From the NCBI GenBank assembly GCA_021432655.1, contig MU271181.1, positions 77,189 through 141,188 on the forward strand: DNA of 64,000 bases, in the 5' to 3' direction. The notes beneath the pieces were generated by a model, which ran no database searches, was not told the origin of the DNA, and saw only the letters and a program-made list of their open reading frames with translations. The stretch comes from Atractiella rhizophila (taxonomy: Eukaryota). Every line of letters begins with the position of its first letter. The stretch's first letter is position 1. The translations under genes and the position numbers were made by a program. Below are positions 2,081 through 51,631 of the stretch, piece after piece.

Positions 2081-4651
2081 ATGCCACGTGCAATTCAGAG
2101 AAATCAAACAAGAAATCGAGAGCGTCGATCCAAACGGCATCAATGTCTGCAGCAGGAGGCATCACTACACCAAGGTCGACCTGTAAGAGAGAGGCAACGC
2201 CCTGCACGTTTTAATCCTACTCCACCTACTCCACCTCAACATGAGACAAGATCAACTAGGGCTCCACGTCAGTGTCTGCAGCGCCGTCGAAGCTCTTCAC
2301 TATCTATATCGTCATGACCAGCTCGACGATATCGGAGACAGCGTTCACCCTCCCCTGAGGAGTACAGTGAAGAAGAAGCCCAATGATACCCATCCTCTCC
2401 TGATCCTGATGGTGTGGACAGTAATGAGGATAGGGTATTAATCCCGTTGTTGTGAGGCAAAATAAGGCAACATCACTATCCTGCATTCAACTACTCACCT
2501 GATATGGATCTTGGGGCACACCACCTCTCTACTTGGGGATTACTTTGTACATATTCCAAAGCCTTTCATTGGATGGAAGAGAAGATCGTTAACAGCCCAC
2601 AACGAAATCCAAAGTTTGCATTGTGCTGTCTCCACGGCAAGGTGCTGCTACCTGTTCCACCGCCTCTGCCTGAAGAGCTACGAAAGCTTTTTACACATCA
2701 CAATACAACAGGTAAGTATTTCTATTCAATTTATTGTGTATACATATCTGAGAGGAACAATCATTATAGAGTCAATGGCATTTCGAGAGCATATCAGGAT
2801 ATTCAATAATGCTTTTGCATTTACATCCTTAGGCGTCCGCTAGGTATCAATTCCTGGACATGGTCTCTACTCCTTCAAAATTTAGGGAGAGCTGTGCCAC
2901 CTTATTGGCACTCTTTTACCACAACAAGAAGGGTGTGAAACATTTGCACCAGGTCTACATTACAGATTCAGCTGTACAGACTGAACGAAGAGTTGGCAGC
3001 ACTTCAATATCACTGAATCGTAGGACGCTTGACGACCTTCAGGCTATGCTCTTCTGTGTCAACCCATATCACAGGATCTACAAATTTGCAAAAGAAAGAA
3101 TGGAACAGGATCCCACTACAACACCACATCTTCGCACAGTCACCCCACAAGATAGGGACCCAAGACGCTACAACATTCCTGTAGCCAGTGAAGTTGCTGT
3201 AGTGAGGTAGGAGACGGTAACAGAGAAGAATATGGAGTGGCCAGAGATATTGTCATCCAGCTCAGGGCAACCAGAACCGGTAGCAACTTACAGTGTGTCA
3301 ATGAGCTCAACTCAAATTATCTTCCACTTCGTTTTCCTCTTCTGTTTCCATATGGGGACCAAGGATGGCATCCACAGATTCCATATCGAGACCTGCCTGC
3401 AGATCTTCCTCCTTGCGAGCGAGAGCACTTCAATGATGACGGCATGCAAGTTGGTAATTCTGGGGTTCGACAACGTGTCAGCCAAATGGAGTTCTATTCT
3501 TACATGTTGCATCAATGAAATGATATATTCTCACTCCCTCTCTACGGTGGTCGGCTACTGCAAGAATTGGTAGTCGATGCTTAAGCTCAAATTGAGGCGA
3601 ATCGACTCCGCTATCTGCTGTTCAATCAAGTCTATTCTTCGAGCCGAGGTGTATCAAGGTCTTACGGATGCCCTTGCAGAAGGCTATTCTTTAGAAGATA
3701 TCGGGAGGCGGACTATATTACCATCAAGTTTCACTGGCAGTCCACGTTCAATGAATCAGCTGTTCCAGGATGCAATGACTATAGTTGGTGCCAAAGGACC
3801 CCCAAATATCTTTACAACCTTCACTTGCAACCCACACTGGGCAGAGATCACGGAAGCCGTCCTACCAGGACAACAACCAGAGGATCAACCAGATTTGGTT
3901 TCAAGGGTTTTTCGACTGAAGGCTCTGGAGTACATCAAGGATTTAGTGGTACGACAGATCTTTGGAAGGGTTATCAGATATGTCTGGGTCATTGAATGTC
4001 AGAAGATAGGTCTACCACATGCCCACATCATGTGGATGGCATCAACGATCACTTGATTCAGTGGTTCGAATCCACAGGAGATCGGGTATATTATAGTACA
4101 GATCAAATTATAGATGACGAGGGAGATCTCAGAAATCGCTTCTCTGTCGAGTACCTGAATACCCTGGAGATCTCTGTATTCCCTCCGCATTGTTTACACC
4201 TCAAGACCAGTGCACCCATCATTCTTCTGTGAAATCTCAATCCATCTGCTGGCCTGTGCAATGGCATGCGGTTCATTGTTACCAGCTTCTCCGACGAGTC
4301 ATCGAAGCAACCATCATTACAGGTACACACAGTGGCGAATCAGTTCTCATTCCTCGAATTGGCATGGACAGTGCAGTATCAAACCAGCCTACTTTTCAAT
4401 TCTGGCACTTTCAATTCCCTGTGCGCTTAGCGTTTGCCCTAACTCTGAATAAAGCACAAGGACAATCTGTTGGAGATGTGGGTTTGTACTTAGCGTCTTC
4501 TCCTTTCTCTCATGGGCAGCTTTATGTTGGTCTTTCATGGGTTTCAAACGCAAACAATTTACGAGTATTGGTCAAAACAAAGCAAGGAGAAGAAAACAAG
4601 CAAACAGATAATGTAGTTTACAAGGAAGTGTTACGAGTACTCAATCACTGA
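2081..4651 (+). pseudogene. Helitron RepHel (HUH Rep + PIF1 helicase) pseudogene with a central deletion
   Basis: CCLHGKV, PLRFPLLFPYGDQGW, ILPSSFTGSPR, FTTFTCNPHW and VIECQKIGLPHAHI (Rep motif 2) are joined directly to the helicase C-terminus (QFPVRLAFALTLNKAQGQS, FSHGQLYVGLS). Multiple stops and frameshifts. Confidence 0.92.
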
Positions 4652-4868
4652 TCATCTCTCAGCATGTTCCTAACAGTATAGTCAACTTTCATTGTTTTTT
4701 GAAGACAGTAGAGTACATATGGTGAGTCTTTGCTCGCCGAAGGCGAGGCCCCACGCAGTGGCTGCCAGAGGCAAGAGCTCCACACAGTGGCCGCCGGAGG
4801 CTGGGGTCCAAGGGGCGAAGCCCCTGGCGGGGGGGGATGCCCGAGGGACGAGGGCACTGACACACTTG

Positions 4869-5900
4869 TTGCATATACATAGTAAGGAGAGAGATCTGAG
4901 CAATAATGATAGTCACTCAACTTGTAATAACAGTCGTGAAGAGCCTGGAGGAGATATTCCTTATCCACAGCTGTGTCCATAAGGTCTCTCCCTTCAGAAA
5001 TCCGAGGAGAGAATGTTATACTGCAAGTGTTTGAGAGAGACAAGATGTCTGGCTCGTTGACATGTCATATGTCGCTTGTCGGAAAACTGTGAGCCATTTG
5101 CACACCTGAGCAGTAGTCAGAATTAGAACGTCTGGCATGTAGAAATGTTAAGAGTAGGACAGGTTACACACCCGTTCAACCGAATTCCACTCCTTGTCAC
5201 TCAGATGCAGCATGAACGGAAGCTCATGGTGATCTGAATAAGTTTCAATGACATCATTGTATCGAATTCCAAGGTCCAGCATATCGTGGGTTGATCTCCA
5301 GCATGTCTGAACATCAAGGATGATCATGCATAGGGATTCATCGGAAAGGCTCTTGTAGGTCTTCAAAGTATCCTCCAAAAGATCTAATCAGCTCTTTTGA
5401 TGTTGAGGAGATCCACAAAACGTGTTTGAGGATGGCTTGGAGCTATCAGACGATTGAGAAAGTACAGCAGCATCATAGGAGCAACAAGCATACCTTTGGT
5501 ATCGCTCCATTGACTTTGCTCAAATCCAATTCTACTTTGTTCAATTCCTCCTCACCCAGCTGTGCAGCATTGTCTTGTATGACTGTAGGATCCTCCATCA
5601 CACACTCTTGGTACAATGCATCCTTAGTGAAATCTCTTCAGGCTCAGGTTCCATCCTCATATCTTCTTCTTCTCCATCCTCATCTTGATCGGGCAGAAAT
5701 AGCTGGTCAGGACCTGGCCAATCCACAGGACCTTCCGGTAGGAGAATGGCATGAATGTGCTTGGCTGTAGCACAGAGATATGCTTTGTGGGCATGCAGTG
5801 TTACCTCAGGAATGGAAGTGACGTGCTGAAGGGGTTTCCACAGGGTTGAAAACATCTTGAGCCTGTCTCGATATCCAACATCGTTGAGGGAGGAAGGGCG
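4869..5900 (-). pseudogene. hAT transposase relic, interrupted by Helitron-1
   Basis: ILDVQTCWRSTHDML corresponds to the hAT xDVxTRWNST motif; also LSDKEW and KLSDYHYCSDLSPYYVYA. It probably continues left of 1277 (xxPRI-like remnant). Confidence 0.7.
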
Positions 5901-6241
5901 CCATCCTGAGATGCTGCATGAAAGGGATCATCGTTATCCTCTGCCTGAGAGTGGAGTTGAGTGAGGAGGACAAGGGTCTTGCCATATAAATCTGAGGTTT
6001 TCTATATGCCCAAGTTCAGCATCAGATCGAACCAGTTCTCTGCTCTGTCAACCATCATCCGAGCTCTACTACCCTACTCGGGCTAGTGCCATACCTGTAG
6101 GGCTAGCCTCATGCTCATCAGTACAGCTGACAAGTGGTTGGATGCGGACAAGGTGCTCAATTTTGAGTGGCGGAAATAAATTCCGGAGTGAACGTTACCT
6201 GTCGTAAAATCTTGCCTTAGCCGTTCGCCTTAGTTTGCCTA

Positions 6242-10813: not shown

Positions 10814-11188
10814 TCACGAGCCGAGATAACAGAACGAGCTCGCTCTTCCGTCACGTCGTGTCAAGTCTGTTTCCCCCTCCCACCTCCTCTCTCTGCGGAG
10901 GAAACGAGCAATATCACCAACGTCAACATCTGTAATTCGACTTGGACCTTCCAGCCGTTCCTTGCGCACCGAATCTTTCATCGGCTGCATCCCCTGCTCG
11001 GTCCGAAGATTGCGAGCCCTCAATTCCCTGAAAGTAATAAACCCAAATCCTCTGCTTTTGGTCGTGTCTACCTTATCCATCATGATGTGACAATCTTGAA
11101 TCGGTCCATATTGTACGAAGCGGGCTCGAAGTCTGTCCTGCTCGCGCTGGTAAGGAAGATTTCCAACGTATAGTTTCCTGGGTGTCAT
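10814..11188 (-). CDS. RRM-containing protein, partial or divergent; possible further exons toward ~9350
   Basis: RNP2 KLYVGNL and RNP1 SRGFGFITF are present; similarity is lost after beta-3. A GTAAGT...TTAG intron-like segment lies on the same strand at ~10080-10128. Confidence 0.6.
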   Translation of the reverse strand: MTPRKLYVGNLPYQREQDRLRARFVQYGPIQDCHIMMDKVDTTKSRGFGFITFRELRARNLRTEQGMQPMKDSVRKERLEGPSRITDVDVGDIARFLRRERRWEGETDLTRRDGRASSFCYLGS

Positions 11189-12094
11189 TTGGTAGCGATG
11201 ACAGAAGACAGAGCGGTAAGAAATGATGTGACAGTGGGAGAAAGAACTCGACGAACCGACGAACCCATTTTTGTAACAACTGGGCAGTCAACAATGGATG
11301 GCAATTCCGCCCTCACGAATTTGACCTCAGTACCTTGCCAAGAAAGGGACGAAGTTTCAGCGGAGGCCGATTTCCGCTGCGAGAGCAAGATTCTGAGGAG
11401 GCAGGTCGAAGGACCTCTGCGCCAGCGCGGGATTTCGGTATCCGTGGGAGCTGCGTCCTGACATCGGATATCGGCATCCGCGCCGGGCTTTCAAATCCTT
11501 CTTTTCCTCCACTGCTATTCACACCAACACCGGTTGGTTTGATCTCTTGCTAACTTATGTGACGACATTTCGATCAAACTCTGCATTTGACTGTGCAGGG
11601 CACAGCTCATTTCAGATAATTTTCCAACGGCAGTATAGAGAGGAGGTGATGGGCTGAGTTTCCGTGTCCGTGAGTAGTTCGTGTTCCCGTCTTTGCGCAA
11701 AGCATTCCATGCATCCACCATCCAATCTTCCATCCTGATTCCAGTCATTGCAACAGAGCTCCAACATCGTCATGAAGCAGCGACGAAGTTCTCTCATCCT
11801 GTACTTGGAGTGGCCTCATTTACCTTGATTCTTCCATACTGCGCCACCGTCAACGTTCCCTTCCATTGCAATCACCACGATTCACGAAAGTTCATGTTCG
11901 TTAGCATTGTGCTGGCAATGGTTTGTGAGGTGAGTCCTTTGGTTCTTTGAGGACATGAGGGTTCATCATGGGTACTGCCGCTGCATGATGGTCTTGGAGC
12001 CAGAGACCCAAAAGTTACCGTCAAAGTCTCGCTGCTTTTGCAACTCTCCTGTATAAAAGCAGCCTGCCTTTTCAAGCTTTCCTCAATCAGAAAA

Positions 12095-15000
12095 ATGGCA
12101 GAAAATAATCCCAACATTCGTAAAAGCATTCGGGCAAAAAAACCTGTTGACTTGGAGGCTAGGAATAATGAAAATGCGACCGCTCTATCTCAACGCAATC
12201 AGGGGGCTGCTTTGCATGCGAAGTATGCTTTTTTTTGTTTTCATTCAATTTTAGTTGTGCTAAACGGATGTGCAAGGCTTCTAAAGGACGCAAAAAGAAA
12301 TGGATACGCTGCTACGAAGTATCTCCTGTCCGAAGGAGACAATCTCAGCAAGAATTTGCTGAAGCTTTCGGTATGTCGTGTCCTTTTGTTATAGATGGCC
12401 TACATTTGCTAAATTTCAGATCAGGATGAAAATGCTACCCTGCCTATTGGCGTTCGGCTCCTCCTCGATATCGCTGTGAAAACGACTGCAGACGAGAACC
12501 AACCTCTCGATGACGATGACGAGTTCACCCAGTTCAGCAAGAAGAGCAAAGAGTTCACTGTGGACGACATTGGCGGCTGGGCGGGTGTCAAGATCTTCAG
12601 CAAGCTCTGGTCTTCGCTTTGGAACCAACTTGGTCGCTTTCCGCTTATCTCGGAGCAGCGTTTGTGCCAGCTACATATCGTCGGAGCAGCTGTTGTCCGC
12701 ATGCTTATCCAAGCTGGAGAACTCGACGATCCCATGCAAGATGCCCAAGATTTAGACTACCTACCTCCGGCTGCTGAGGAGAGGCTGAGCATGGAGCCAG
12801 AGGAGGAGATAAGCGATGAAGGAGAGAGAGAGATGAACCGAGCTGCCGCAGATGCATTGAAGGAGATGCGGAAAGGGGATGGCGGGAACGGAAAGACTAG
12901 GAGTCAGAGGAAGAGGGAGAAGGGGAAGGATAAGAAGAAAAAGCGGAAGAGTACTGCTATTGAAACAGTAGAGGTGAGTGATTCTTTCGCTGCCTTGACT
13001 CTGGCTCAAGGGATTGCAGATGTGTCCGGATGAAGAAAATTCAACTGTGAATGAAGAGACAAATCGGGACGGAAAACGGAAGGTATGCTGTGTGCCTGTG
13101 CTCTTCTACCCACCTGGTGCTGATGCCATGACACTGTGCGCAGAGAATCGGAGTCGTACGAGGGAAAGCAACCATCAAATTTTACTACGAGGCTATTCAA
13201 GATCCTTCTAAACTTGCTAAGACCAGTCTCTCGCTTAGCTTCGGTGACGGTGCAAAGCTCCACCCTGGCAACCGTGTTTTCCAATGCCACAAATGCAAGC
13301 GACTCCTCTGTCAAACGCCGGCACAAAAGTACAATTGTGACGGTCTCATCAGGCACTGGTCCAGCCATGGTTCTGCTTACCAGACCTGCTTCACGCACCT
13401 TTGTGAAGTTAAACCCGGTGAACCCTTCAACGAGCTTGATTTATCCTTTGCGAAAGGGAACATGGCTCCCGGAGACTACAGTCGGGAGAGGGGACTCAAC
13501 ACCCCTATTCCTGCATGGGCACAACCGAAGCAAGTTGTCTCAAAGATGACTCACAAAGGAGATCAGGCATGCACCCATCTGCTTAATCCATGCCGAGAAG
13601 GCTGATCCAATATTTGTTTTGGAAACAGGCGGTCGACCCAGAACGGCTGAAGTATCTTATCTCCAGATGGACTGCATCCTCTGCTCAATCGTTCACGGAA
13701 GTTGACTGTCCCGAACTTCGTGACTTGCTCACATATATTCACGGTACTCCACTCTCAATTCCGAGCTCTTGGACCATCCGAAGAACAGCTCTCGAATGTG
13801 CGGCTCACCTCACCGCAAATCTTTCCTTCTTTTTCAAGGTATGTGCTTTCTGTTTTTGAGACACAGCTCTGAGCACGGGATGATAGGACCACATTGGTGA
13901 CGGCGAGATCGCACTGTCTCTTGACAGTTGGACATCGAGCAATCTCATCGCTTTTCATGCAATCTGTGCACACTTCATCGATAAGGAAGGACACCTTGTC
14001 AATGCTCTGCTAGATTTTGTTGAGCTGAAGGGAAAACATTCGGGGGAGAGGATGGCAAAAAGTGGTTTACGGAGTGCTCAAGAAGCATAGATTGTTGGGA
14101 AAGGTAGCCTTTTCTGATATCTATTGTGAATGTTGCTGAATAATCTTGCTCTTAGATCTCGATTATAATGTCGGACAATGCGACTTGAATGATACGATGA
14201 TGACCATGCTGGAGGATCTTTTCAATGCTGACAACATCGATTTCCCCGTAAAGGAACGACGAGGCAGATGTCTCCCCCACATCATCCATCTCGCCGCCTT
14301 GTCTCTGTTGAATGCACTCGGTGCATGGCCAGCATCCACAAAAGCTGGCCGCGACGTCACTCCCAAGAACCCTCCCGAGTCCAGTGGCATTCCTCCTCAA
14401 GTTTCTGATGAATAACAACGAACCCCCTCCTCTTGTTCCCATCGATGATGACGATGAATCCGCATTGCCGTGTCAGTGTCAGCTCCCAACCCTGCTTAAT
14501 GCAGATGGGACTGTTTTTGTGGAAGAAGATCCCAAACTGGATGAAATGATGCATGGAATGGGATTGGGTGACAACGTAATGTCAGACATGAATGCTGATG
14601 TTGGAACAGCTATCCAGCGGGTAAGTTTCCTCTTGCTTTCTCCCTGTTAACATTGAACTGATGGATTGACAGCTCCGAGCGATCCTAAAATGTGCTCGCT
14701 CATCTCCGCAGAAGAAGGAGATGTGGTTCAAGCTTCCCGGTGCCACCTTAGTCGAGAGTGAAGAGTCCGAAAAAGTTCTTATCCTTGACGTTCGAACGCG
14801 GTGGTCCTCAACTTGCAGCATGCTGCAGCGCGCGCTTCTCTTTCGCTCCGTTGTCGACCACTTTGCTCAATATTACTCCCAAGATCTGAAAGGTGTGCGG
14901 TTGAGTGAGGAAGACTGGGATGCAATCAAGCTCGTCTTATCGTGGTTGGAGGAGTTTGCCGAAGTAACTGCTCTTATGTCTTCGGCCTCCGATGTCACCA

Positions 15001-15941
15001 TCAGCAGCGTTGTTCTGATATTCCTCAGCTTATTTGAAAAGTTGGAAGAGGCCTTTGCCTCTCTGCCACTCCGGACTCGGAAAAAGGTAAAGGATGGGCT
15101 CTCCAAGGCACATCAAAAGTTGGCAAAGTATTATGATAAATCTGATGCTTTCCCGTACTACTTTTGGGCTATTTGTGAGCTCTATCTTTCTTCCACATTC
15201 TTCTCATCCGGCTGCATATGTCTGTTTGCTGATTTGGATGGAGGGAATAGTACTCGACCCTAATGCTGGTCCTGCAACTTTGGAGGATCCGCGTTACGCT
15301 TTCGATCCCTTCTGGGTGGAGCGTGCCAAGGACAACCTGAAGAGGAAGTTCGACAGCGACTACGGCCACTTAACCCCACCACTCGCAACTCCTATCTCTG
15401 TGAAGGTCAACAACTCAAAGCCCGCATTGAGTGCACAGCAGAAGCTCAATGAGCGGATCGGTCGCCAAAACAACGTTCAGACAGCAGCGTCGCCAACGCA
15501 TATCCTCGATCGCTACTGGAAGCATATCCGCAAACTGCAAGATCCCGATGACGGAGAGCCTGATGTCGGCAGCTTGGATCCTCTCCAGTGGTGGCAAGCA
15601 CAGGCTGCGGGTGGTAGATTCCAAGCTCTGGTCCCTTTAGCGCAAAGTGTGCTTTGCATCCCTGGTGAGTCCTTTCTTATTTTCCCTTCTTGCTTTGACG
15701 TTAATATCGCATTGTGGTGGCAGCATCTGCAGTAGCTGTTGAACGAGTGTTTTCCTCTGGCAGAGATGTCATCTCATTGCGCCGAGCTTCCCTGAAGGCC
15801 GAAACAATCCAAAAACTCATGATGTTACGCTCTTGGTGGATGTTAGATAGGAAGAAGAACGGGGGTTTGTCTTGGCTGTTTGAACCTGTCAAGTTGTCTT
15901 CTTCTTCGAAGGATTTTGTTATGAACATTGATAGTGACTAG
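12095..15941 (+). pseudogene. hAT-A transposase (multi-exon: N-terminal extension, BED finger, DDE core, dimerisation domain) with frameshifts
   Basis: BED: FYY..FQCHKC..LIRHWSSH (13180-13370). Core motifs SLDSWTS, SDNA, RCLPHIIHLAA, LDVRTRWSST and DPLQWW, then VERVFSSGRDVISLRRASLKAETI. Frameshifts at ~14060 and ~14186. Confidence 0.9.
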
Positions 15942-15999
15942 TGCTTCATTCAAGCTTGCTTGCTCATGTAGTCTACATACGCCAACTGACGATTAATCC

Positions 16000-16173
16000 A
16001 CACCGTCTACACCATCCAACCCGTCCGCCAACCGCTTTTTTTCACCCGTCAACCGCACCGTCACCGTCAGAGGTGGTTTGTTGCTGATGACGGTGCGGGT
16101 GACGGTGCGGGTTCACCCGTCCCGTCACCGTCCCAGCCCAAAAAATCGACGGACGGGACGGTGCAAAGCCCTA
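16000..16173 (+). repeat. Right terminus of hAT-A: TIR GCAAAGCCCTA plus CCGTC/GACGG subterminal repeats
   Basis: Nearly identical to the right end of the MITE at 56210-56298. The matching left TIR was not found. Confidence 0.85.
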
Positions 16174-16477
16174 CTCAACCAAAAGCTCCAGTGTGATGAA
16201 ACGTAAACAGGTTTTCAAACATGCTCAAAGAATACAAACTTCATCGAACGCTGATAAATCCGCATGAATAACTGGGTTATCTTTGTCTAATTCACATGTT
16301 AGACAGAGTCCAGTTGCGAATGCCACCTTCAGCATGACAATGTTCCAGATCACCGGGATTCCATAACACCCTATACCAGCCTTCGTCATTGAAGGCGGCT
16401 CTCTTGAAAGTTCTGTCCTAACGGAAGGCCTCGAAGCAGAGAATGTCCTCCTGGACAAAGGGAAGCGCCCTAAACAA

Positions 16478-20454: not shown

Positions 20455-23400
20455 CCAGTGTGTCAGTGCCCTCGTCCCTCGGGCATCCCCCCGCCAGGGG
20501 CTTCGCCCCTTGGACCCCAGCCTCTGGCGGCCACTGCGTGGGCCTCGCCTTCGGCGAGCACATGTAGACATGGGTTTTGGTATGAATCTACATGCATCCG
20601 ATTGTGAAAATTCAAAACTTCTCTGTACACTATATTTTCCATCCTCTTATTCTCTATCCCTTGTACTTGGTGTAAATAAACTCGAAGATTCTTAGCGTTC
20701 AAAACTCTAGAAAGTCCTACGGAAAGTTATCCATGTGCAAAAACTAGTATGTCCAAATACAATCCAACAGTCTCCACCGACTGGCCTTGTGACTTGTTGA
20801 TGGTCAGACAGAAAGCCAATTTAACAGGGAATTGAAACCGCCATAAGGTAAACGGGAATGAATTGGAGACCTTGCTATCCAATTCAATGCGTGGGATGAG
20901 GACCAAAGTGCCTGTGAATCCGCCTGTAATGATGGTAGCCTCAATGACACGGGAGAGCAGCTGGGTGATGATCAACCGTGTACCATTACAGAGCCCAGCT
21001 GAAGGATTGAGGTTTCGTATCAGAATGATAGGGGCTCCAACTTTGAGATGAAGACGATGAAGAGGGACACCCATCATATTGAGAGTATTGAGGTATTCAA
21101 CTGTGAAGCCTTGTTGAATGTTCTCACTATCGTCCATCAATCGGTCAGCACTAAGGTAGATACGTTCCTGTCAGGAGACAAATTGTCGAATAAGCTGATC
21201 GTTTATCATGTCAACATCAACATTCCGGGCTGTAAGGACCATGCGCTCTTGAAAGTATTTCCTCAACTCGAGTGGGTTGACATCTTGCGTTATGGTGCTC
21301 AGTCCAGGGTATATGTCAGTCAGGAGACCGTCCAGACCACAGGGTCACTGGACTATTGTTTGGTCGTTCATAGTTAATGGACTATGGCCACAGTCTTCTG
21401 GGTTATCTGTTCTGCCCTTACCAACTGACAACAACCATTCAGCAAAGCCAGAGGCAATAGCAAAGTCTCGGCTACTCATTTCGGCCTGATGACGGAGCAG
21501 GCGCATATTTACTGTGAGTAGGAGGACTCGAACTGCTGTCCAAACGGACTGTTGATGACACACGCATCGACGATCTGCGCACGTGAAGCTTTGGGGATGA
21601 CTGAGTGGCATTGTCACATGTCGCCTAATTATTTATCAGACATGAACTCTTTGACTTGATTCACTTACCACCAAGAACCAAAATAACTCCACCGAAAGGC
21701 ATATCCACCTTACGTATATCTCTCAGCATCCAGTCAACTGCTTCAAAGCACCATCAATGACTCATTCCCACTTCGTCCCATATTATCAATTCTGCCTCTC
21801 AACAAAGTCAACCGTCATCACTTTGAGCCGTAACACCACAGATGGAATCAGCTTCAATGTCCAATGGGATCTGGAAGCGAGTATGGGCTGTTTGTCCACA
21901 TTCCAGCAGAATAGCAGCAATACCAGAAGAGGGCACTGCCAGCGCAATTTTCCCCGCTGAATGTACTGTGGCGAGTAATAGGTTTTCAACAAAAGTCTTT
22001 CCAGTCCCTCCTAGGCCATCGATAAAAAATAATCCACTATTTCCACTTTGCCATGCTTCTACAACCGTGTCATAAGCATGACGTTGGTCCAGATTTAATA
22101 ACGGTAACTCTGTCTGAATACGTGCGTGAAGTAGTGGTCGATCATATGCAAGTTCTTCCCCAATAATCCTTGTCTCGCCTCCCCATCTTTGTAGTCGCTC
22201 TGCGGGTTGTGGTAGTCCAAAGTCACTTAGGGATTTCCAATGAGCCTGGAGGAGATCTTCAATTTCGAGGAGACAGAGGCTGATAATTTGCTCGTTCATC
22301 GGATCGGGTACACCATATTTTGTCCGTAGAACGTGTTTACAATCGTCACTGAGTTGCTCATGATGGCTGTCCCATAATCTTCTGGGTTCACTGGCGACTC
22401 CGAAGAGCAGGATGTAGACAAACAGAGATCGCATCGCAAAGCCATTCTTGACGGTGCTGGCTTCATTGAGACAATAATCCCATTCTTCGTCACTTTCTAA
22501 TAGCCCAAGAGCCACACATGTAGCCTTGAAAGTCTCATAGACAGTTCCCTCTACTGTTCGGATATCCTCAAAAGATTTCAGACTGGCAACCTGATGCAGA
22601 AGCATTCGGAGATAGAATAACTCCCCTTGTGAGGGCGCAACATAGTAGATACGGCCGATAGCTTCTTGTTTCTCCCGGATTTTCCAAGAGCATGAGCCTG
22701 ACTTCCAGGTAAAGAATTGAGGAACCTTAGGATAGGTAAGGTCTTCAGTAATGTTGGGGTTTTCCCGACAGTAGGTGAAGAACTCTGTCAACATTGTTTT
22801 GGCAATGTTGTTCCTGCCGAGAATGTCACCCAAGGACTCATCCTGAGGATTAAAGGTCACAGAATGCCGATCAGGAAGGTGTACTGCCAAGCGAATAACC
22901 ACAAGAAAATGCTGGTGTAAAGTAACGTGGAAAATCCGGTAATAGGCTGTAAAATTGTATCAAATAAGCCCTGACATCATCTCAGAGTAGTTCTAAACAC
23001 TTACCTTCAGAAGATCCGATGAATCTAGCATCCAAGTACTCTTGAATCTCATCCACTACCCTAACATCACCTCAGGCACTATGAAGGACAGCTTGTGCCC
23101 GATCATTTCCTTTGTAGACGTATTTGAACAGGTATTTGACTGATTTGATGGAGATGCAGAGTTTCACATTGATATGAGCTGTAAACTGACAAAGGACATA
23201 AGCATTGAACGACACGACCCATCGATTGTCGTAAATGAATCCATTCCGCGATTTCTGAAAGGTACGTCCAATGTTACGGCGACGATAGGTGGGATAGCCA
23301 TCCTCATTGATGCCTGTTTCTTCTATGAATGGCTTTGGAAACCCTTTGCCACAGATCTTTCTTCCAGGATTTTTAGGATCATCTATCATGCATGGAGCAT

Positions 23401-25865
23401 CTGGGTTGATATCTCCACAGGTCCATGAAGCATATGATTGCAGACAATCTCGAACAATTCAGGGTCTGTATCCTTGTCAGGCAATTCAGCAGATACTATG
23501 CGGTCGATTGCCTCGACATCCCTGATGGTATCTTCAGGATTGAGGATGATGAGGATGTGAGCATGGGGGAGACCGCATTTCTGAAATTCAATCACCCAGA
23601 CGAAGCTGACCGACCGACCAAAGATTGAGCTATCCTTGATGTCCTGCATGTAAGCCTTCACCTTTGCGTTGAAACTCTAGAGACCAAGTCTGGTCGATCA
23701 GCAGCTGTTTGCCCAGGAAGTAGAGCTTCTGTGATTTCTGGCCACCGTGGATTTCAAGTGAAAGTTGTGAAGATAGCAGGTGAACCTTGGTTCCCAACAA
23801 TTGCCATAGCATCTTGGAATTGCTGGTTCATCTGGCGGGGACTTCCTGTGTGTGACGATGGTAGAATGGTCCGCTTCCCAACATCTGCAGCATCTCGACC
23901 ATCTTCTAATGCATCGCCAAGTCCAGCATAAGACTCAGTTCGGAGAAGTTCTTGATTGTACCTCAGGAACCTCAATCGTCCACTTTCTATCTGAGCATAA
24001 GCATCACAAACCAATTCTTGAAACAGCCGGCCACCATGGTGAATTAGAGAGAATTTGTCCTTCTTTAGGTGTAGCAGGTAAGGGTAATAGTTCATCTGAG
24101 TAAGGTGTTTCTGTTCTCCTATTACTAACTATTCGTCCTTCATCGATATTCTTCTCATGGACCCCGTAGAAGCAGATCTTCATGACTAAGGGGGATGTAT
24201 GCGTGCCAACCTTGCTCGCCGTAGGGGAACAAAAGTGGGAAGCGTAGAGGAAGATAGTTGGCATTCTGATCACTAACTCTCTCAAAGAAATTCTGACCAT
24301 CAGGACGTCGAAGTTTAACCACAATGTCCCTTGTGATACCTGCCGTAGCTCCTGACTGTTTGCCAATGAGAAGCACTGCAATTTCTCTTATGCCATGACC
24401 TGTTGCCCTATTGTATCGTCAAGGGTCCTGATCAGTAGGATCAATAGTTTGAAGGTGGAGGTTCAAAATCGGATTATCCCCCATGTGCTCTCTTGCTGTT
24501 TTATAAATTTCTGGCCAGGGATTGACTTGCCACATCATTTCTTGTAACTTCCTCAAAGTCCCTTCCTTGAGTTTGTGCTGTCCAACAGTCTCTACCCTTT
24601 GTTGAATCTGCTCTTCAGAATCCAGCATATAGATTTGTGCGAACTGTTCATCTCCATCAGAATCAGGTAGCAAAGCTCCAATGCAATGGCACAGCTCCCC
24701 TTGAATTGGGAAAGAGTAAACTCCTTGCCCAGGAATAGGTGGCCACTTGACTCCAAGAGAAGTAAAGGAAAGAGCATTATTGTAGGGCCGGATATTTTCT
24801 CGAAACTGCTTTGATTCTTGGGTATCTGGGTTGATTAATAGCTGATGTAATTCTGCTGGTGGTTCTTCATAAGCTGGAAGAATAATCTTTCCCAGAGAAC
24901 AACAGTTAGAAAACTTTGGATTCCACTTAGAGCTCCTAGCTATCCGTTCCTCCAGCCAATGAAAGGCACCACATTCTGAGCAAAAGGATTCATTCCAGCC
25001 CGAAAGTCGGATTGCCTCCACTGTGTCTGGTAAGTAGTTGAATGCGAGAAAAGGATGCTGATCTCGTCTTACATCCCGAGGAGCTACCACTGTTTGATCA
25101 GGCAGATCAGTATTCTCAAATACCCCCACTTGTTGTCCATCAGAGGAACCGTCGTTGAATTCTTCACATAAAGGTTGAGGGTCTGGCTGCCATCGGTGTC
25201 GGCGTCCTCTAGGAGGTTCATCCTCCTGCTGTTGCTGCATATGAATTTGATGGGTCAAATGCTGAGGTGGTGTTCGTTGTGTAACCTGGAAGCGCTGTGG
25301 TAATCCTGCATGACGTCTTTCTGAGCAACGTGGAGCAACCTGAGGTGTATCTGATCGGCGCTCCTCCCGCCTTTGTTGCTGAGCATGGATGTGTTGGTTT
25401 ATACCATTTTTTTTTCTTAGGATGGGGCATGATGATTCCAAGATGGCATGAGAACATAATGCAAGGGAGTATATTCCAACTCACATGTGTTCACTTTCTT
25501 CCCCTCATGGTAGGCAAACATATTCTCCTGGCGCACAACCTGAGAAAACCCAAAACGCGCTGTAGAAATCTTGTGCGGCGCTTCCGGCTTGTGCGGTGCT
25601 TCCGGCACGGCATGAAATTTGCAGGGCTCCTGCACACGGCATTATCGGTTTTGTGGGCCTCTTCACTGGTTCAAATCCAGGAGGGAACTCTTTTTTTCAT
25701 GACTTTAAAATAAAATTTCCTTGCACTTTCAGAAAGGTGCAAACATAGGCAGTAAGATGGTGTACTTCATTTCATTTCAATGTGCCTGGTGAGGGAGGTA
25801 TGAGGGCTCAAAAGTGGTTTTATGACTCACGCTAAGAACTGATGAATCTATAGATGATTTTAGGA
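20455..25865 (-). mobile_element. Helitron-2, full length (5411 bp), inactivated
   Basis: 5' end A|TCCTAAAATCATC at 25865. 3' hairpins followed by CACACTGG|T at 20455 (CTRR end). AT target, no TSD. Confidence 0.92.
20600..25441 (-). pseudogene. RepHel pseudogene with complete domain order
   Basis: CSECGAFHW..CCSLGKI, PLRFPLLFPYGEQGW, ILPSSHTGSPR, VIEFQKCGLPHAHIL, KYLFKYVYKG, FIDGLGGTGKTF and TINKSQGQS. Stops and frameshifts throughout. Confidence 0.93.
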
Positions 25866-26342: not shown

Positions 26343-28538
26343 ATGGCGGCTCCCTCCCCCAAAGCTGATCCTACTAACCTTCCCGTACAAGACACCCCAG
26401 CGAAGCCTAGCACTGGCTCTTCCCACAGAAATGTAGCCAATCCACTGACGGAGAACCCAGTTGCCTTCGAGTTTGCTTCCGATGACATGAAGGGGAAATA
26501 CGCCAAAGTGGATGTGGAAACACTTCTCCACAGGTTACCAAGGCCACGGGGACGTTTACCTGAACCGCCATCTGAACCACCGGATATGTCAGGGATTGAA
26601 ACCACGCATTACAACAATTTTGTGAGCACATTTGTCCGGTCTTAAAAGCGTTCTTATGTATCCTTGTAACATCTAGATAGAGTACATGGCTCCCTTTATC
26701 AATCCACCTTGGCAGCTCGTCAACACGAGTACCAAACTTGGCAGCGATTTCGTTGATGTGAGAGGCGTGAATGCTGTCAAACCAGACGTCACCCTCTATC
26801 ATTACCCTGGAGAGGAGAAGACTGTCATGAAGAAAGCCGAAATGTTCGGAGAGTTCAAGACGGAGTCGGAACCTGAGCCGTTTCGCGATGAGGACGATGG
26901 AGGGGTGACAGAAAATGAAGCGAGCGGAGCTAGATTGTCGCGAGGACAAATCATCATTTACAGCACCATCATTCTTTCTGCCCAAGAAAGAACGAGATCG
27001 TACTCGTTCTTTATTCGAGGGCACACCGCTCGCCTTTTTTCTCACTCCCGCGGAGGTTTCGAAGTGACGCCGTCTTTCAACTACGTCGAGACCTCCCATC
27101 TCCGCGAGTTCTTATGGCGCTATACGAACGCGTCTGCTGAACACAGAGGCCATGACACGACGATCCAGGACATTGCCGCGAACGACGAAGGCGTAGAGGA
27201 CGCCAAGGTAAAGCTCGGGGTCAGGATAGGCAGGCCACTCTTCAAGGTCGAAGTGGAAAACAGGACTTTCTACATTTCTCAGCCGTTTCTCTTTCGCCAC
27301 AACCAACCTGTTGGCCGAGGAACGAGGTGTTTTGAAGCCTACGACGTAGTCGACAAACGCCTCGTCCTTCTCAAGGATACCTGGCGACACGCTGAATACG
27401 ATTCGGAAGGCGAAATCTATAAGATCTTGCATAAGCGAGGCATCCCTAACATCCTGGGAGTTGTTGTCGAAGGTAATGTAGCTGGCGAACTTCAAAGCAC
27501 GCATCGATTGGCGAACGGCAAAGAAGATGGAAAGAAGTTCGTACATTATCGAATCGTTTTGGATAAAGTTGGAAGGCCGCTCAGCGAATTTAGCTCTAGC
27601 TATGAGCTCGTCAAAGGATGTGCAGATGCCTTCGAAGGTGAGCCGATCCAATCCTCCCCAGCACTGAATCTGATCCGTTGTGCACAGCTCACAGGGTCGC
27701 TTGGGACAAGCTCAACATGCTCCATCGAGATATCTCTTCCGGGAACATCATTCTTGGTCCTATTGAAGAAGGACCGAAGGGATATTTGATCGATTGGGAG
27801 TTTGCAAAGAAGGCAGGCGGCAGCATGAAATCCCAAGAGCGAACAGTGCATGCCTCTTCGATGAGTTCCAACGCGTCACTAACAGTGGAACAGGGCACCT
27901 ACGAGTTCATGTCTGCTCGACTCTTGAGCGCAATCCTCTCCGATTCCAAAATCGAACACAAACCAGAAGACGACATCGAGTCCTTCGTTTATGTTTTAGC
28001 CTGGACCATCATATCGCACGCACCAAGCAGTATGGACCAATCAACACGTCAGAGTCTCCTGGATAACTTCAGGAGAAGCCCTCAGAACGACATACGGACG
28101 ACGATTGACAATCGGACTGGGGTCATAACGCGGGGTGCGATTCCACTCGGACTCACTACGTTCCAAGTGAATGAGCTACTCGACGAACTCTTCGACGCCC
28201 TTTCTTCCCGTCTACTCCCCCGCACAACGTTGGAGATTCGGCTTCGTACTTTTATTCGAGATCTCAATAAGATGCGCAAGTTGGAGGTATCAGCAATGGA
28301 AGTGGAAAAGGAGGTTAAAAGGATTGCCAAGGATAAGATTGCAAAAATGGAGACTCACGACTTTATGCGGCAGGTGTTACAGAATGCTCTTGAGGATGAG
28401 CAACGAAGGTGGCGAGATCTGCAGGATGCGGCAGTTCCCCTAGAGGCTCAGCCACGGGGCAGTGGCAAGAGGAGAGGAGTGGCAATGGATTCAGGCAGAA
28501 GGAAGATGGCGAAGAGTTCTCTGTCTGCTACTGTTTAA
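26343..28538 (+). CDS. Fungal-type protein kinase (FunK1 / Pkinase_fungal), ~680 aa, 4 exons
   Basis: Predicted GT-AG introns at 26622-26676, 27638-27687 and 27846-27893 give one open frame. Motifs GRGTRCF, LLKDTW, LHRDISSGNII, GYLIDWEFA, RTGTYEFMS and HKPEDDIESF. Confidence 0.9.
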
Positions 28539-28821: not shown

Positions 28822-30021
28822 GTTTCCTTGTAGGTTCAGGAAGGGGCAAGCATATAGGGTACAATGGGCCCTAGGGATGGCTATCGTACTGTATCGTCGT
28901 CTCAGCACCACTTCCGGAAGGTACGTGTCCCTGTCTCGGCTCGTATCGTACCGTAACAAATTTCCATTGTCAGATACGTACGAGTACGGCGGAAAACGGG
29001 AGAATACGACGGATTACGGGTTATATGGCACATAGCAATTTCATCACGTCTTAAGTATCACGTGTCACACTTTCGTCGCTTCTGACCAGCTCTGCAACGT
29101 CATCCTCCAATGTCATCAGCTCTATTTGCAAACTCTGTAAGCTGAGATTTCCAAAGGAAGCGCGCAATGTGATCCTGAGCATGATAAGGTCGTGTATCTC
29201 AGTATCTAGACAATGACAGCAAATACCTATGGTATCACAAGCACCAGAGAAGATGTGCTTGACTCCCACAGCACAACATATAGCACTGAAAAACCTGAAA
29301 ACAAGTGAGAACACTTTGGGGAGACACGTTCTGAAATAGCCAGAATATCTCGAGCCAGAAAAGACAAGTTGTGCAAGTTGTGCAAGTTGTGCTTTAACTC
29401 TTACTTCCAAAAGGAAAGTGGATCAGCTCCCAAGCCAGGGTTACATGCTTGAAGAGATGGTTAATTTCCTTCATTACTCTATTTTAATCTGCTCCCGCCT
29501 TTGGACCATGACCGATAGAAGCCAGATAATCGAGAATGGAGAGAGTCGAAGACGTTTATATGTTTGAGGAGAGGAAGGATGTGTTATCGGTGCGAGCGCT
29601 CGTCTTGTTTCATAAGCTGCAGCCTCAATGTGTCAGTTTTGTTGAAGAATCTAAGAACACTGAAAAGGAAGCACGGACCATCGCCTCCACTGTCCTCCTT
29701 TGTAACCCATTGCTCCAGCTGCAAATTGCCTTCCGCCACCGTAACCCGTAATACAACAGATTTTCTGGATGAAAACGGACGGGATGTGGAGGATGGCGTA
29801 TCGTATCGTATCGTCCCGAAGAACAGTCAAGCAGGACGGACGGGTACGGTACACATATCGGACACGTACGTCTGGGACGGTGCGATCCGATTGCCATCCC
29901 TAACAATGGCATAATTTATTTCATTCTGTTGTGCATGGTGAGGGAGGTGTGAGGGCTCAAAAGTGCGTCTTATGACTCATGCCAAGAGCTGATCAATCTT
30001 AGAGGATAGGATAGGATAGGA
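28822..30021 (-). mobile_element. Helitron 5'-terminal fragment split by a hAT MITE
   Basis: Starts TCCTATCCTATCCTATCCTCTAAG at 30021. Segments 29903-30021 and 28822-28870 together match mini-Helitron 316-462. Confidence 0.8.
28872..29902. mobile_element. Non-autonomous hAT element (~1030 bp), TIR TAGGGATGGC(T/A)ATCG
   Basis: 14/15 TIR match and CGTAT/ATACG subterminal repeats. ACAATGG flanks both sides as an imperfect TSD. Same TIR family as the terminus at 60737. Confidence 0.82.
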
Positions 30022-30758: not shown

Positions 30759-33700
30759 TAGGGAATGTATACGGGGTCCCCGTGACCCCATGGGGAAATC
30801 CGTCGCGGGTAAGAGTACAAAATCCCATCCCTACCCCGCCCCCTACCCACGAAGGATTCACCCGTACTCCCCTTGGGTGTACGGGGTTTCCCATGGGTAA
30901 CCCGTGGATGTTCGTGGGGGAAAGGGTACGGGTTAGACCTGTGGATGTCATGAGCAGAACCAAGGCTTTTAAATAAATTTCAAGCCAGGCATGTAAATAT
31001 TTAAATCACAGGCAGTTGTCAATCAATCAATAACAATTTCAGCAACATCAGCCGCCCTCTTCCGCTGTTGCCTCGCCTCCTTTCGCTCGCTGTCACTGTT
31101 CTCAAGGAGGTTCACCAACTCCTTCACATCTGCCAAGAGCCCATCCTCATCCCAAAGCTTCAGCATCAACAATGCACGGAATCTGGCATCCGAAAGTCGG
31201 TGACGAAGGTGAGTAACAGTGAGACGTCCATCCGAAAAAGCCCTCTCAACGTCGGTCGAAGAACCTTCAGGAAAGTTGTCAGAGTAATCACGAATGACTT
31301 CGGAGGAGAGACTAACACGGAATGGCGGAAATGTCCATGGCAAGCTCCCTGAACTTTTTCTCCTGCTCCGACCCAGCTGCCTTCCAAGCCTTGTAGTGGT
31401 AGCTCAAAGCATCTAGCTCATTTGTTAACCCGTCCTCTCGCAGGACAATGGCTTCTGGTTTCGCTTCCAGAAACTCTGTGAGGAAGTCCACTTCCACAGG
31501 AGCTCCGTTCAATTGCTGAATCATCGGATCGTAGGATGCCATCTTCATCTTCTTTTGTGGATGTTGGTCCTAAACATACTTCAGTCTGGATTTGTTGATA
31601 ATCAGGACATACTTTATGGCTCATATCAGCCTCTGCTGTATTGGTTACCGTGTAATACTTCTGATAGTACTCTTTCAGGCCGTTGACTGCTTCGGCAATC
31701 CATGCTGTTTCCCAATCCAACAGCTTCAAATAAGCCGTCCTTCGGTTTGGGTGAAGAACTATGAGCAAAATTGAGCAAGCCAGGCAATGGCACCAACGAA
31801 ACTAGATGCATACGAAGAGCCCAAGTGCAGATATGTGCCTCATCTGTTACCTTTGAGAAATACTTGTCGAGCAGCTTGTGGGCACGCTCTGCACCATTCT
31901 GAATAGCCATATGCGCGTCGGCGAAATGCCACTCACCATCCAACTGATAATCTTCATACAACCGGGAAAGGTGAATGCCTATGTTGTTAAACATTGGTAT
32001 CACACGGGCCAGATTTGGGCTGTCGGATTGTGACATCTTGTCGCTCGTCTCCTGAAAGAGCTAGAGTAGAATCCATTTCAGCACATTGCTTCATGCTTGT
32101 CATAAAGGACAAACGACTCACATCAAACGACGGAACAAGTTCATCCAAGATCGACCACTCCATCCCTGTCAGTCGGCATTTCTCCAGCTTCAGCCTTGGC
32201 TTTCCGCAGACATTTGCAATCGGCTCCCTCAGCTGCAGAGCACGATTGACCATTGCACCTTCACCGTTCCATCGAGTGGGGCAAGCACGAACAAGGTGAA
32301 TTGGCGGCTTGAAGTGCTTGAGCAATCCGGCTGGGTCGTCTTTCTGCGCTTGGAGAACTTCGGTTTCCAGGCTTGTGCGTATTGCATCACTATCCTCAAC
32401 CCTCTTGGCCAGATTAGTGATCTGATCCAACGGAATGTCAGTCAGAAGTTCAGTTGTAAGTCAGAACAACTGGGCAAACCTTGGTGAGTGTGAAGCGAGC
32501 TTCGCATTCCTGTTTCGCGGAGCATTCTGTTGCCATGATTTGGTTATCAATTGCCATGATGGCAGCTTCATCAGCCTGTGCTTCGTCCGAAGTGCCTGTA
32601 ATCTGGTAAGCACTGATGAACCAGACTCTATGGGACTCTCACCAATGATGTCTGCTTCATCCCCAAACCCCGACTCATTGATTTCGCGATCCAGTTCTGC
32701 TAATGCAGCTTCATCCAGAGCAACAGATGTCCCAACTCCGTCAACTGAGGACTTCTTGGTTACGGGACGCTTAAAGCGTGAGATGAATGCCTATGATCAC
32801 GCTATTAGTTCAATAGTGACACAAAAGGGATTAGTAAAACAGCTAACCTTTGCAATGAGGTTTAAGATATGCGGAAAGCATCTAACACGCATAGGCAATC
32901 CTCCCCAGCGCACCATCCGAGGGAACTTGTTGAGGTCAGCAAGGGCTTTCGTGAAGGTGTCGTTGTTTGAGGCATTGTCAGCGACGGGAAGGATGACCTT
33001 GTCGGAACACGTTGAGCAGACAGTGAAAGATAAAGGTCAGAAACATGAAGTCACCTTTTCACAGACATCAAACTCCTCAAGCACCTTGTAAACCTTCTCC
33101 GCAATGGTGATGCCCGTATGTGATTCTGTGATGCTGCCGAGCAGTTATTGGTTGCACATTTTAAGTGAGCAGTGCTAACCGGATCATAGCAAGGCCCGCC
33201 TTCTTCATTCTGCCCTTTTCATGATAATGGAGGTAAACAAGGACGTAGGAGAAGGACTGCGGCGACGTCCAGCCGTCGAGGCTGATGCTGCACATTCCCT
33301 TGATCAGCTGCGCCACTCATTAGTCACATTGGAGTGTTAGAGAAAAAGGTACTAACTTGCAGCTTCTGCCTGACCTTTCCCTTCACGTAGTCGTTGATCA
33401 CGGAGCAGTCATCCGCAACTTTATGAGGATCCAGGTTGGCAACACGGTCTGCTCCTCCATTTCCCACCTTAAGTACATCTCGATAGTACTTATCTTGCGT
33501 GATGTTGAACGGACGAGCTGATGTGGCACACCACAACGCTGTGTAAACCCGTCGAAGAAGAGCACGGCGCTCCGGAGTAAGGGTTTGTACCCAAAGCTCC
33601 TTTGCGCCGCTGGCAATCAGAACTGCTTGTTTCTCCTTTGCCGACTTGTTTGCGTCGTGACGCTATTCTCCAAACAATCAGACATTAGTGGCATAGAAGA

Positions 33701-34772
33701 AACCAGTGCGGACCTTGAGACATTCATCAACGCTTTTTTGCATCGTTCCCGTTGAAAGATCATCTCACGCCCACTCAAACCGATGCTCTTCAGGGTGCTC
33801 CTTGCAGAGAAGGGTATAGAAGACCCGAAAGTCACCAATAGCACCGTTCTTCGTCTTCTTCGCACATGTTCCCCGACGAAGGATAGGTCGCTCCTCGAAG
33901 TGAGAGTAGGAGCTGGGCTGCGTCGAATTCTTCTTCGTAATGGATTTGCCCCAGCGTTGGAGATCAAAATCTAGTTGTGGGAACGATCAAAAAATGATAC
34001 AAAAGCATGCCAGGGCTCACCAATGATCTCGTCATCCGTCCAAGACTTGAAATTCTCATCATTGCTTTGACTTTTTCCACTATCAAGCTTTCGAGGAGAT
34101 CGACGAGGCGAGCCACCTTCATCCTCGAACACGTCGAGGGCAACAGGCTGCAAAGTAGGAGTGATGTCTCGCCTTCGAGGCTCTCTCAAATTTTCCAGTG
34201 ACATCTTAATGCCTAAAGAATCTTTGAAGTGTGGCCAGGCTCCTCTCTTTATATGCCAGCTTCAGATGAGCTTTCATGCTTGTCCGTAACTCTTTGCAAG
34301 CCACTCATTGGAGTTACTGACATTCCAGTGAGACTACTAGCACTCTTGCAATTGCTTTTCGCATAGATTTCGCAAAGCTCTTTGGCCTTCAAGGAACTTT
34401 GTTCCAGACACGTAGTTTGAACAGGTCCTTACGCGCTCACCGTATTTGCGCCGTGAAGAATATTTAGAAGATATTGGTTCACATTGCATGGCCAGCTATT
34501 GCAAGCTCGCACCACCTCTTCAATCCATCCCTGTACATTTCGTTTCTTTTCCTAGTTCCCAGTTCCGAAACCGTTGGAGGTGGTCAGAACAGCCTTTGAG
34601 TGCACGGGTAAACAAGGGGAAACCCACGGGTTCCTGACCTTTGAGGAGCTTCCCCTACCCCACCCCGTGCCCATGAAGGGTGAACCCTTGCCACCTAAGG
34701 GTGACCCCCTACGGGTAGGGGGTGGGGAGGGTTGAGGGTTTGACGGATTTCGAAATCCGTATACATTCCCTA
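30759..34772 (-). mobile_element. hAT-B transposon, full length (4014 bp)
   Basis: Perfect 16-bp TIR TAGGGAATGTATACGG and perfect 8-bp TSD GGCCATAA (30751-30758 and 34773-34780). Confidence 0.95.
31023..34204 (-). pseudogene. hAT-B transposase, multi-exon, with at least one nonsense codon
   Basis: WCATSARPFNI, SLDGWTS, ADNASNND, RCFPHILNL, RACPTRWN, VLHPNRR and SSTDVERAFSDGRLTVTHLRHRLS. TGA at ~33765. Confidence 0.88.
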
Positions 34773-49890: not shown

Positions 49891-49923
49891 GTGAGTGAGT
49901 GCCGTGTGGGTTGAAGCTGTGAC

Positions 49924-51543: not shown

Positions 51544-51631
51544 TTGTGCAGCTGAGTTTGGGGGTTAGCTGAGTAATTCTCCCCCAGTGTGAGGGTTTGC
51601 GATTGGGTGTACTGCACTGCAACCCTCACGT

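Follow-up and report, generated by a model that had tools for sequence, protein, structure and literature searches.

hAT-A, its module and its transcripts

The 64,000 nucleotides (nt) analysed here, termed the window, come from contig MU271181.1 of Atractiella rhizophila (GenBank assembly GCA_021432655.1, forward strand, positions 77,189 to 141,188) and are transposon-rich fungal DNA. Two hAT transposons of the window, hAT-A on the forward (+) strand and hAT-C on the minus (-) strand, have a long region, here called the module, ahead of the BED-like zinc finger of the transposase; a first-pass annotation, made from the sequence, had described it as an unrecognised N-terminal domain.

RNA contigs from four public runs were aligned to 11900-16300 at 90% likeness or higher. 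Contigs of all four runs had intron-skipping joints with GT..AG ends, so that the runs contain spliced RNA of the hAT-A element family; most contigs differ from the window copy by a few percent plus 1-nt insertions or deletions, and therefore come mainly from a sister copy of hAT-A. The features below were placed using an open reading frame (ORF) list, these contigs, and a hidden Markov model (HMM) built from the family alignment and run against all window ORFs of at least 25 amino acids (aa); RNA joints are given as the two positions joined.

12095-12222 (+): hAT-A exon 1, 128 nt with a phase 2 end; basic arm and NNE(D/N)(G/A)T-x-LS motif (ORF list; RNA joint 12222/12277 in runs X17 and X1; HMM 9.7e-7 on the ORF 11951-12391, which covers exons 1 and 2)
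12223-12276 (+): hAT-A intron 1 (RNA contigs)
12277-12370 (+): hAT-A exon 2; carries the domain's first helices, with the GY-x-x-x-K-x-LL region (RNA joint and loose contig end)
12371-12424 (+): hAT-A intron 2 (RNA contigs, from the loose end)
12425-12973 (+): hAT-A exon 3; helical-domain core, acidic tract with D-L-D-Y motif, basic tract like a nuclear localisation signal (HMM 9e-48)
12974-13019 (+): hAT-A intron 3 (RNA joint 12974/13021)
13020-13082 (+): hAT-A exon 4; short linker exon, in frame (joints 12974/13021 and 13080/13142)
13083-13143 (+): hAT-A intron 4 (RNA joint 13080/13142)
13144-13566 (+): hAT-A exon 5; BED-like zinc finger (C-x2-C ... H-x4-H) and following region (assigned by pattern only)
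13629-15941 (+): remaining hAT-A transposase, six further exons (RNA joints, PF05699, likeness to a Spongospora hAT)
16163-16173 (-): hAT-A right terminal inverted repeat (TIR), with GACGG-type subterminal repeats inside; contigs diverge at 16173-16174

Intron 1 sits after 42 codons plus 2 nt, in agreement with the 42-43 codons given by the first-pass annotation; the single intron that it allowed in this region has to be replaced by two (12223-12276 and 12371-12424), both of them found in RNA contigs. Exon 2 has an open frame and aligns with the database proteins P0010 and P0008, and contigs over exon 3 cover 12457-12974. A single 897-nt contig of run X1 spans 12515-12974 plus 13142-13518, so that the module exon is physically linked to the BED-like exon, and the claim that the region is joined in frame to BED was borne out by contigs that splice the two in frame; at the RNA level, hAT-A exon junctions were seen in contigs of all four runs. 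The spliced frame of the window copy starts with the ATG at 12095 and is open for 556 aa, which take in the module and the finger and reach the first core region; it ends near 14057, at a one-base difference from the expressed copy. RNA joints place six more introns downstream of intron 4, and among them the fifth intron of hAT-A (13567-13628; joint 13563/13626 with 5 ambiguous letters, runs X17 and X1) is apparently GC-AG, not GT-AG.

The hAT dimerisation domain PF05699 was found in the hAT-A ORF 15705-15941 (E = 9.1e-7, 29.0 bits vs. a cut-off of 21.4), and an adjoining ORF scored 19.6 bits, under the cut-off. The 197-aa ORF 14670-15263, from the hAT-A core, has 33% identity over 85% of its length (E = 3.6e-11) to P0018, a Spongospora protein of 737 aa that is named HAT dimerisation domain protein and carries PF27041, PF27039 and PF05699; a tblastn search with P0018 also matched hAT-A at 13908-14057 and 15741-15833. 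hAT-A is predicted to possess a DDE/RNase H-like core with an insertion domain like those of known hATs. The finger, a C-x2-C ... H-x3/4-H pattern with upstream aromatic residues in both hAT-A exon 5 and hAT-C, is recognisable by pattern only, and none of eight sequences matched Pfam zf-BED even at E <= 5.

The hAT-C copy, a third copy and hAT-B

The other copies of the module in the window were placed as follows.

60728-60737 (-): hAT-C left TIR; 14 nt in common with the ends of a 1,031-bp element at 28872-29902
60268-60395 (-): hAT-C exon 1; basic arm and NNEDGTALS motif (HMM 3.5e-18; 98% identity to P0002 residues 1-43)
60139-60221 (-), bounds approximate: hAT-C exon 2 (tblastn, residues 45-69 of P0003/P0007 to 60213-60139)
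59650-60091 (-): hAT-C exon 3; helical-domain core, acidic tract, short basic tract (HMM 7.5e-61; 87% identity to P0002)
59137-59445 (-): hAT-C BED-like exon (93% identity to P0002 residues 229-331)
5601-6001 (-): third, decayed module copy, P0015-like and frameshifted (70% identity to P0015; HMM 5.6e-23 and 4.5e-5)

The hAT-C chain starts at the ATG at 60395 (-), and the joining of module to finger in the C type is taken from the deposited gene models of the sister copies P0003, P0004, P0005 and P0017. The HMM matched three places in the window only (hAT-C, hAT-A and the third copy, with the E-values listed), and all three copies lie in hAT elements. The third copy is followed on the same strand by ORFs that are remnants of the middle and C-terminal parts of a hAT (4645-5637), with no BED-like exon between them and the module, and is therefore an internally deleted hAT. 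There was no HMM match on the hAT at about 31000-34000 (-), presumably the hAT-B of the first-pass annotation, which had rightly listed hAT-B as lacking the module. The hAT-A core gave weak tblastx matches with the rest of the window (best to the third element, 5068-5345, with 35% identity over 40-46 aa, E = 1.5e-5; to hAT-B at 32146-33298, E = 0.048), and these are too little for placing the window hATs in a tree.

The two elements had also been credited with different TIRs. The two words are present at the right end of hAT-A and at the left end of hAT-C, but neither the left end of hAT-A nor the right end of hAT-C was found by TIR word, by inverted-repeat search, or by a pattern of target duplication plus TIR. 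Elsewhere in the window, at 55625-56298, lies a 674-bp non-autonomous element with ends of the hAT-A type on both sides, subterminal repeats of the GACGG type and a perfect target duplication of 8 bp, TTCTGGCA; the flanks of the 1,031-bp element (28872-29902) show a direct match at 7/8 positions, displaced by 3 nt at the left. The end of hAT-C at 60737 interrupts an ORF in 60740-63000 (-), which may be hAT-like, judging by one motif (an LDP-x-FKL-like stretch); the ORFs of 60740-63000 (-) matched no Pfam family, and tblastn with a hAT protein gave no match there.

Homology of the two N-terminal regions

The regions ahead of the finger, 12095-13143 (+) of hAT-A and 60395-59650 (-) of hAT-C, are homologous as judged by alignment. 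The Smith-Waterman score of the exon 1 pair was 60 (shuffle mean 19.5, standard deviation 3.8) and that of the exon 3 core was 54 (shuffle mean 25.9, standard deviation 4.4), each higher than all of 2000 shuffles, so that the likeness proposed by the first-pass annotation withstands comparison with shuffled sequences. The exon 3 ORFs alone gave E = 7e-4 by BLASTP (identities 14/38), and the homology of exon 2 is based on the family alignment; over the N-terminal module, hAT-A and hAT-C are 25-31% identical. The three sequence blocks quoted in the annotation were found in the ORF lists and in the sequence where it had placed them; their gapless alignment has to be given up, as small gaps are needed in the family alignment. 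Chance or compositional likeness of acidic and basic low-complexity regions retains next to no probability as an explanation: the tails are indeed of low complexity, and a sub-threshold match to YL1 falls there in one member, but the significant likeness sits in the non-repetitive exon 1 motif and in the helical core, and chance similarity was refuted by the shuffle tests, the two-sequence profile search described next, and the window HMM search.

Database relatives

A profile made from two sequences, the exon 3 cores of hAT-A and hAT-C, was searched against 1.84 billion representative proteins (E <= 0.001) and found 11 proteins, namely nine named Atractiella rhizophila proteins, P0009 (an unnamed read-derived fragment) and P0014, an unrelated repeat protein that was rejected as a spurious match. 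Word-based searches with each exon 3 gave one and five more Atractiella proteins, and P0017 was added through a cluster look-up. Apart from P0009, all close relatives are hypothetical proteins of A. rhizophila. The family alignment holds at least six branches:

window C type and P0002
P0003, P0004, P0005 and P0007
P0012 and P0017
P0015 and the third copy of the window
P0013 and P0016
P0010 and P0008, with P0011, P0009, P0001 and the window A type

At least four further branches bridge hAT-A and hAT-C. The NNEDGT-x-LS motif is invariant in a six-sequence alignment, and the window hAT-A has a diverged form of it. Parts of a hAT, either a BED-like finger or others, are present in 10 of the 16 module-bearing database proteins (P0001-P0008, P0011 and P0017); the remaining ones are truncated models, with unrelated sequence fused in front in the case of P0016. 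Several deposited models (P0008, P0010, P0012, P0015) consist of the module alone or of the module fused to the final transposase residues; such models resemble internally deleted elements, from which module-only proteins might still be made.

No host paralogue or other architecture of the module was met with in the searches made. Patterns run on JGI metagenome contigs gave 146 matches for NNEDGT[AS][LM] and 436 for six patterns from hAT-A exon 3, with no relative among either set. P0018 from Spongospora, the closest non-Atractiella relative retrieved, has no likeness to the module and only core regions in common with hAT-A. The suggestion that the region may define a fungal hAT subgroup is therefore not borne out in its original wording: the module-bearing hAT clade so far comprises one lineage, A. 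rhizophila, plus one read-derived fragment.

Conservation and descent

Between subfamilies the module is at least as conserved as the BED region. P0003 and P0017 are 48% identical in the module, 32% in the BED region and 31% in the linker; closer pairs have 62-77% identity in the module and 76-77% in the BED region, with the values for P0002 lowered by a partly mis-modelled module. Wherever they can be compared, proteins of the A type and the C type run collinearly; their identity is 25-30% in the module and 25-36% behind the finger. This collinearity, together with similar divergence before and behind BED, indicates that the two types are diverged branches of one clade, linked by the bridging branches, and not two different hAT families as first annotated. 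The presence of the module in both is probably best explained by common descent in one Atractiella-restricted hAT clade, and not by its having been gained twice; the long-term pattern of conservation argues for function and for vertical descent together with the transposase.

It is very improbable that the module is a captured host sequence, i.e., transduplicated host exons that have no role in transposition. No homologue was found outside a hAT context among the 1.84 billion representatives, and the module has been retained by six or more diverged branches, is as well conserved as the finger region when these are compared, and always lies in the same place, spliced in frame.

Predicted fold and searches for known families

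AlphaFold2 modelled residues 1-215 of the C-type protein P0003 with a mean predicted local distance difference test score (pLDDT) of 70.6, rising to about 85-95 over residues about 40-165; for the A-type protein P0010 the pLDDT was about 85-93 over residues about 30-160. Both models have the same order of seven helices, in a domain of about 125 residues with low-confidence arms on each side, and they are not independent of one another, both types being present in each alignment. The module is thus confidently predicted to contain a seven-helix domain of about 125 residues.

Neither model had a match in the Protein Data Bank (PDB) by Foldseek at E <= 0.001. The best Z scores from VIA-align against 48,161 chains were 5.3 for the C type and 5.0 for the A type, and these matches were generic helical ones. 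Helical repeat or bundle modules recurred as weak matches to both models: the N-terminus of TSC2 (5hiu; Z 5.1 with 79 residues aligned at a root-mean-square deviation (rmsd) of 2.8, and Z 5.0 with 82 at rmsd 2.9, across the two models), the LW domain of TFIIS (7cnf: Z 5.3 with 92/96 residues at rmsd 3.7 for the C type and Z 4.2 with 88 aligned at rmsd 4.7 for the A type; 8h6r: Z 4.2 with 80 aligned at rmsd 3.0), and the HEAT repeats of condensin (5oqr). The TFIIS matches (7cnf and 8h6r) tie with many unrelated helical proteins, and for these modules as a whole the Z scores lie in the range that the tool states to be common for unrelated helical proteins; there is no sequence likeness, and the matches are no evidence of relationship. 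The ESM Atlas gave no usable feature match for either type, and the neighbours of its own poor model (pLDDT 0.40) were TPR or squalene-cyclase-like proteins at a template-modelling score <= 0.46.

Pfam-A (models to 2025) returned no family for the exon pieces at E <= 0.1 beyond one chance row, DUF1281 on the exon 1/2 piece (E = 0.082, 12.9 bits vs. a cut-off of 27.3). Across 16 aligned members there was likewise no Pfam family, and the sole sub-threshold row was YL1 (PF05764) in P0010, where the match (E = 5.2e-4) runs over residues 137-227, from the end of the domain through the acidic-aromatic tract to the basic tract; at 20.6 bits vs. 29.2 the cut-off was not reached, the match occurred in 1/16 members, and the composition of the region is biased. 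PDB sequences searched with a profile gave two chance rows only (E = 0.071), in the C-terminal part of the alignment. As the first-pass annotation had supposed, the region matches no described domain: there was no Pfam family above cut-off and no clear fold match by Foldseek or VIA-align for the AlphaFold2 models. The module is a previously undescribed domain, with no Pfam family and no clear fold relative.

Architecture and probable role

Read from the N-terminus, the module would begin with a disordered basic arm bearing the almost invariant NNEDGT-x-LS motif, followed by the predicted compact, net acidic domain, with its seven helices and about 125 residues. Next would come an acidic tract in which an aromatic residue is conserved (D-x-D-Y/F), a helix, and a lysine/arginine-rich, nuclear-localisation-like tract, behind which lie the BED-like finger and the DDE core. 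The module would be encoded in the first three to four exons of the element itself, spliced in frame to BED, and inherited together with the transposase. In hAT-A the net charges of the segments are -7 for the helical part, -8 for the acidic tract with the conserved aromatic residue, and +8 for the lysine/arginine-rich tract. The module is probably non-catalytic, as the alignment has no conspicuous conserved set of catalytic-type residues, and DNA binding by it seems unlikely because it is net acidic.

We hold, with moderate confidence, that this is an accessory N-terminal module of one hAT clade that has diversified in A. rhizophila, most likely a non-catalytic handle for interaction or regulation. 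It would serve in protein-protein interaction or regulation, either by binding a nuclear factor of the host or by governing how the transposase is imported and assembled; the basic tract would act in nuclear import, and selection on transposition would hold the conservation of the module level with that of the BED region. We favour a docking or regulatory handle because an invariant motif in a disordered arm, a helical-repeat-like domain, and acidic-aromatic and nuclear-localisation-like tracts are typical of interaction regions. The conserved accessory module of the first-pass annotation is upheld in its factual part, since the module is here established as homologous between the elements, spliced, expressed, predicted with confidence to fold and, among the sequences examined, confined to hAT contexts; the roles suggested there, namely chromatin targeting, anti-silencing or autoregulation, are putative.

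The main rival is self-regulation or assembly: either the helical domain multimerises, or the enzyme is kept inactive, pending a signal, by an acidic tract that bends back onto the basic tract and finger. We consider this a possible but clearly less probable account. The acidic tract (-8) lies directly beside the basic tract (+8) and the BED-like finger, and precedents exist for both forms of the idea, in that Hermes needs a higher-order assembly driven through its N-terminal region (PMC10368747) and piggyBac is reported in a preprint to be inhibited by N-terminal phosphorylation (10.1101/2022.09.26.509586). Against it, a strongly conserved short motif in a disordered arm resembles a site for docking a partner more than it does part of an oligomer interface. 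A homodimer prediction with two copies of P0003 residues 27-176 scored 0.00, with the alignment not used, and gives no evidence either way.

More specifically, the module might be a device for docking on chromatin or a host factor, in which the invariant NNEDGT-x-LS motif and the HEAT/TFIIS-LW-like domain would bind a conserved nuclear partner and the acidic-aromatic tract would bind histones, so as to steer integration or to shield the element from silencing, with truncated module-only copies regulating the family. This fuller version seems to us unlikely; if true, it would make the module the hAT counterpart of the tethering domains of retroelement integrases.

Several observations weigh against the favoured reading. 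Each of the three copies in the window is damaged. In hAT-A, where the contigs show 1-nt differences, the frame is shifted from about 14057 onward, with breaks near 14057, 14186 and 14411 when it is set against the expressed sister copy, and the left end is not recognisable. The hAT-C copy is decayed, and the third copy is internally deleted. For hAT-C the first-pass annotation has to be corrected in that the frames of exons 1 and 2 do not join cleanly and that tblastn with P0002, P0003 and P0007 matched no transposase behind the BED-like exon. The runs are labelled 'RNA?' or '?', and their RNA nature is drawn from the intron-skipping contigs. The searches covered protein libraries, metagenome contigs and the window, so that stand-alone or host copies may exist elsewhere in the genome, and the profile used on the large library was built from two sequences only and may miss distant relatives in other fungi.

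Short-term substitution also gave no support. Between the window and expressed copies of hAT-A, 40 differences were listed, with 24 more beyond; of the 40, those before the first frame break, 28 in number, were classified (13 synonymous, 15 non-synonymous) and the 12 behind it dropped. Within the module there were 4 synonymous to 5 non-synonymous differences, with no sign of recent constraint at that depth, and these counts are too small to say anything. When constraint was examined, it appeared in the long-term conservation across branches and left no sign in the copy-to-copy counts.

Finally, a joint at 11927/12161 in runs X17, X1 and X4 skips 233 nt (GT..AG); the predicted start codon at 12095 is thereby lost, and the frame is entered immediately before the NNE motif. 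As the window copy of hAT-A has no in-frame ATG upstream, the N-terminus predicted for the expressed hAT-A protein is a provisional one; the joint may represent an alternative 5' exon or a regulatory isoform. The same joint and the same missing ATG would suit an explanation in which transcripts with the upstream exons are untranslated or non-productive and the start of translation lies near BED. We regard this as even less probable than host capture, since a frame of 556 aa is open over four RNA-supported introns, the predicted fold is confident, and conservation at the protein level at 25-48% identity across branches would not last in untranslated sequence.

Other features of the window

Fragments of Helitrons (Helitron_like_N, PIF1 helicase, Pif1 2B domain) are, in part, long inverted and direct repeats of each other, and a few apparent host-type genes lie amid the transposons.

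3574-4053 (+), 20730-25480 (-), 34712-35158 (-) and 41605-42747 (-): Helitron fragments
10817-11287 (-): ORF with an RRM domain, apparent host-type gene
26677-28535 (+): fungal-specific protein kinase (PF17667), apparent host-type gene
48082-51564 (-): two long open frames side by side (614 and 546 residues), neither with a Pfam family
51582-51926: 115-nt tandem repeat in 3 copies, next to the 614- and 546-residue frames
53520-55075 (-): Zn2Cys6 transcription factor (PF00172, PF11951), apparent host-type gene

Comparison with known transposases

The hATs are among the best-studied eukaryotic cut-and-paste transposons and serve as gene-transfer tools. In Ac, too, the DNA-binding region is preceded by a stretch of some size, most of it dispensable. 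A limited open-access search found no literature on such a domain in hATs, and a limited open-access search found none on transposable elements of A. rhizophila. What the present elements add is an undescribed domain family, a modest and lineage-restricted addition to a well-known kind of transposon; its reach is limited, being so far one fungal lineage, with function inferred only. Within that compass, an extra folded N-terminal domain that is conserved like the finger, and whose transcripts are spliced in several public runs, makes the clade a tractable case for how a transposase gains and uses a handle for host interaction or regulation.

Accessory decorations of transposases are a known phenomenon (PMC5751038). 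Known accessory domains on cut-and-paste transposases belong to named families, unlike the Atractiella module. With hATs of the Hermes/Ac/Tol2 type the elements have in common PF05699 at the C-terminus (in hAT-A), a similar core, a CCHH-pattern finger ahead of the core, ends that begin TAGGG, subterminal repeats of the GACGG type and, on the small derivative with hAT-A ends, an 8-bp duplication. In the Hermes paper cited above (PMC10368747), hAT transposases are described with an N-terminal BED domain, which in Hermes lies within the first 78 residues; in the Atractiella elements, by contrast, about 285 residues, including the predicted folded seven-helix domain, precede the finger.

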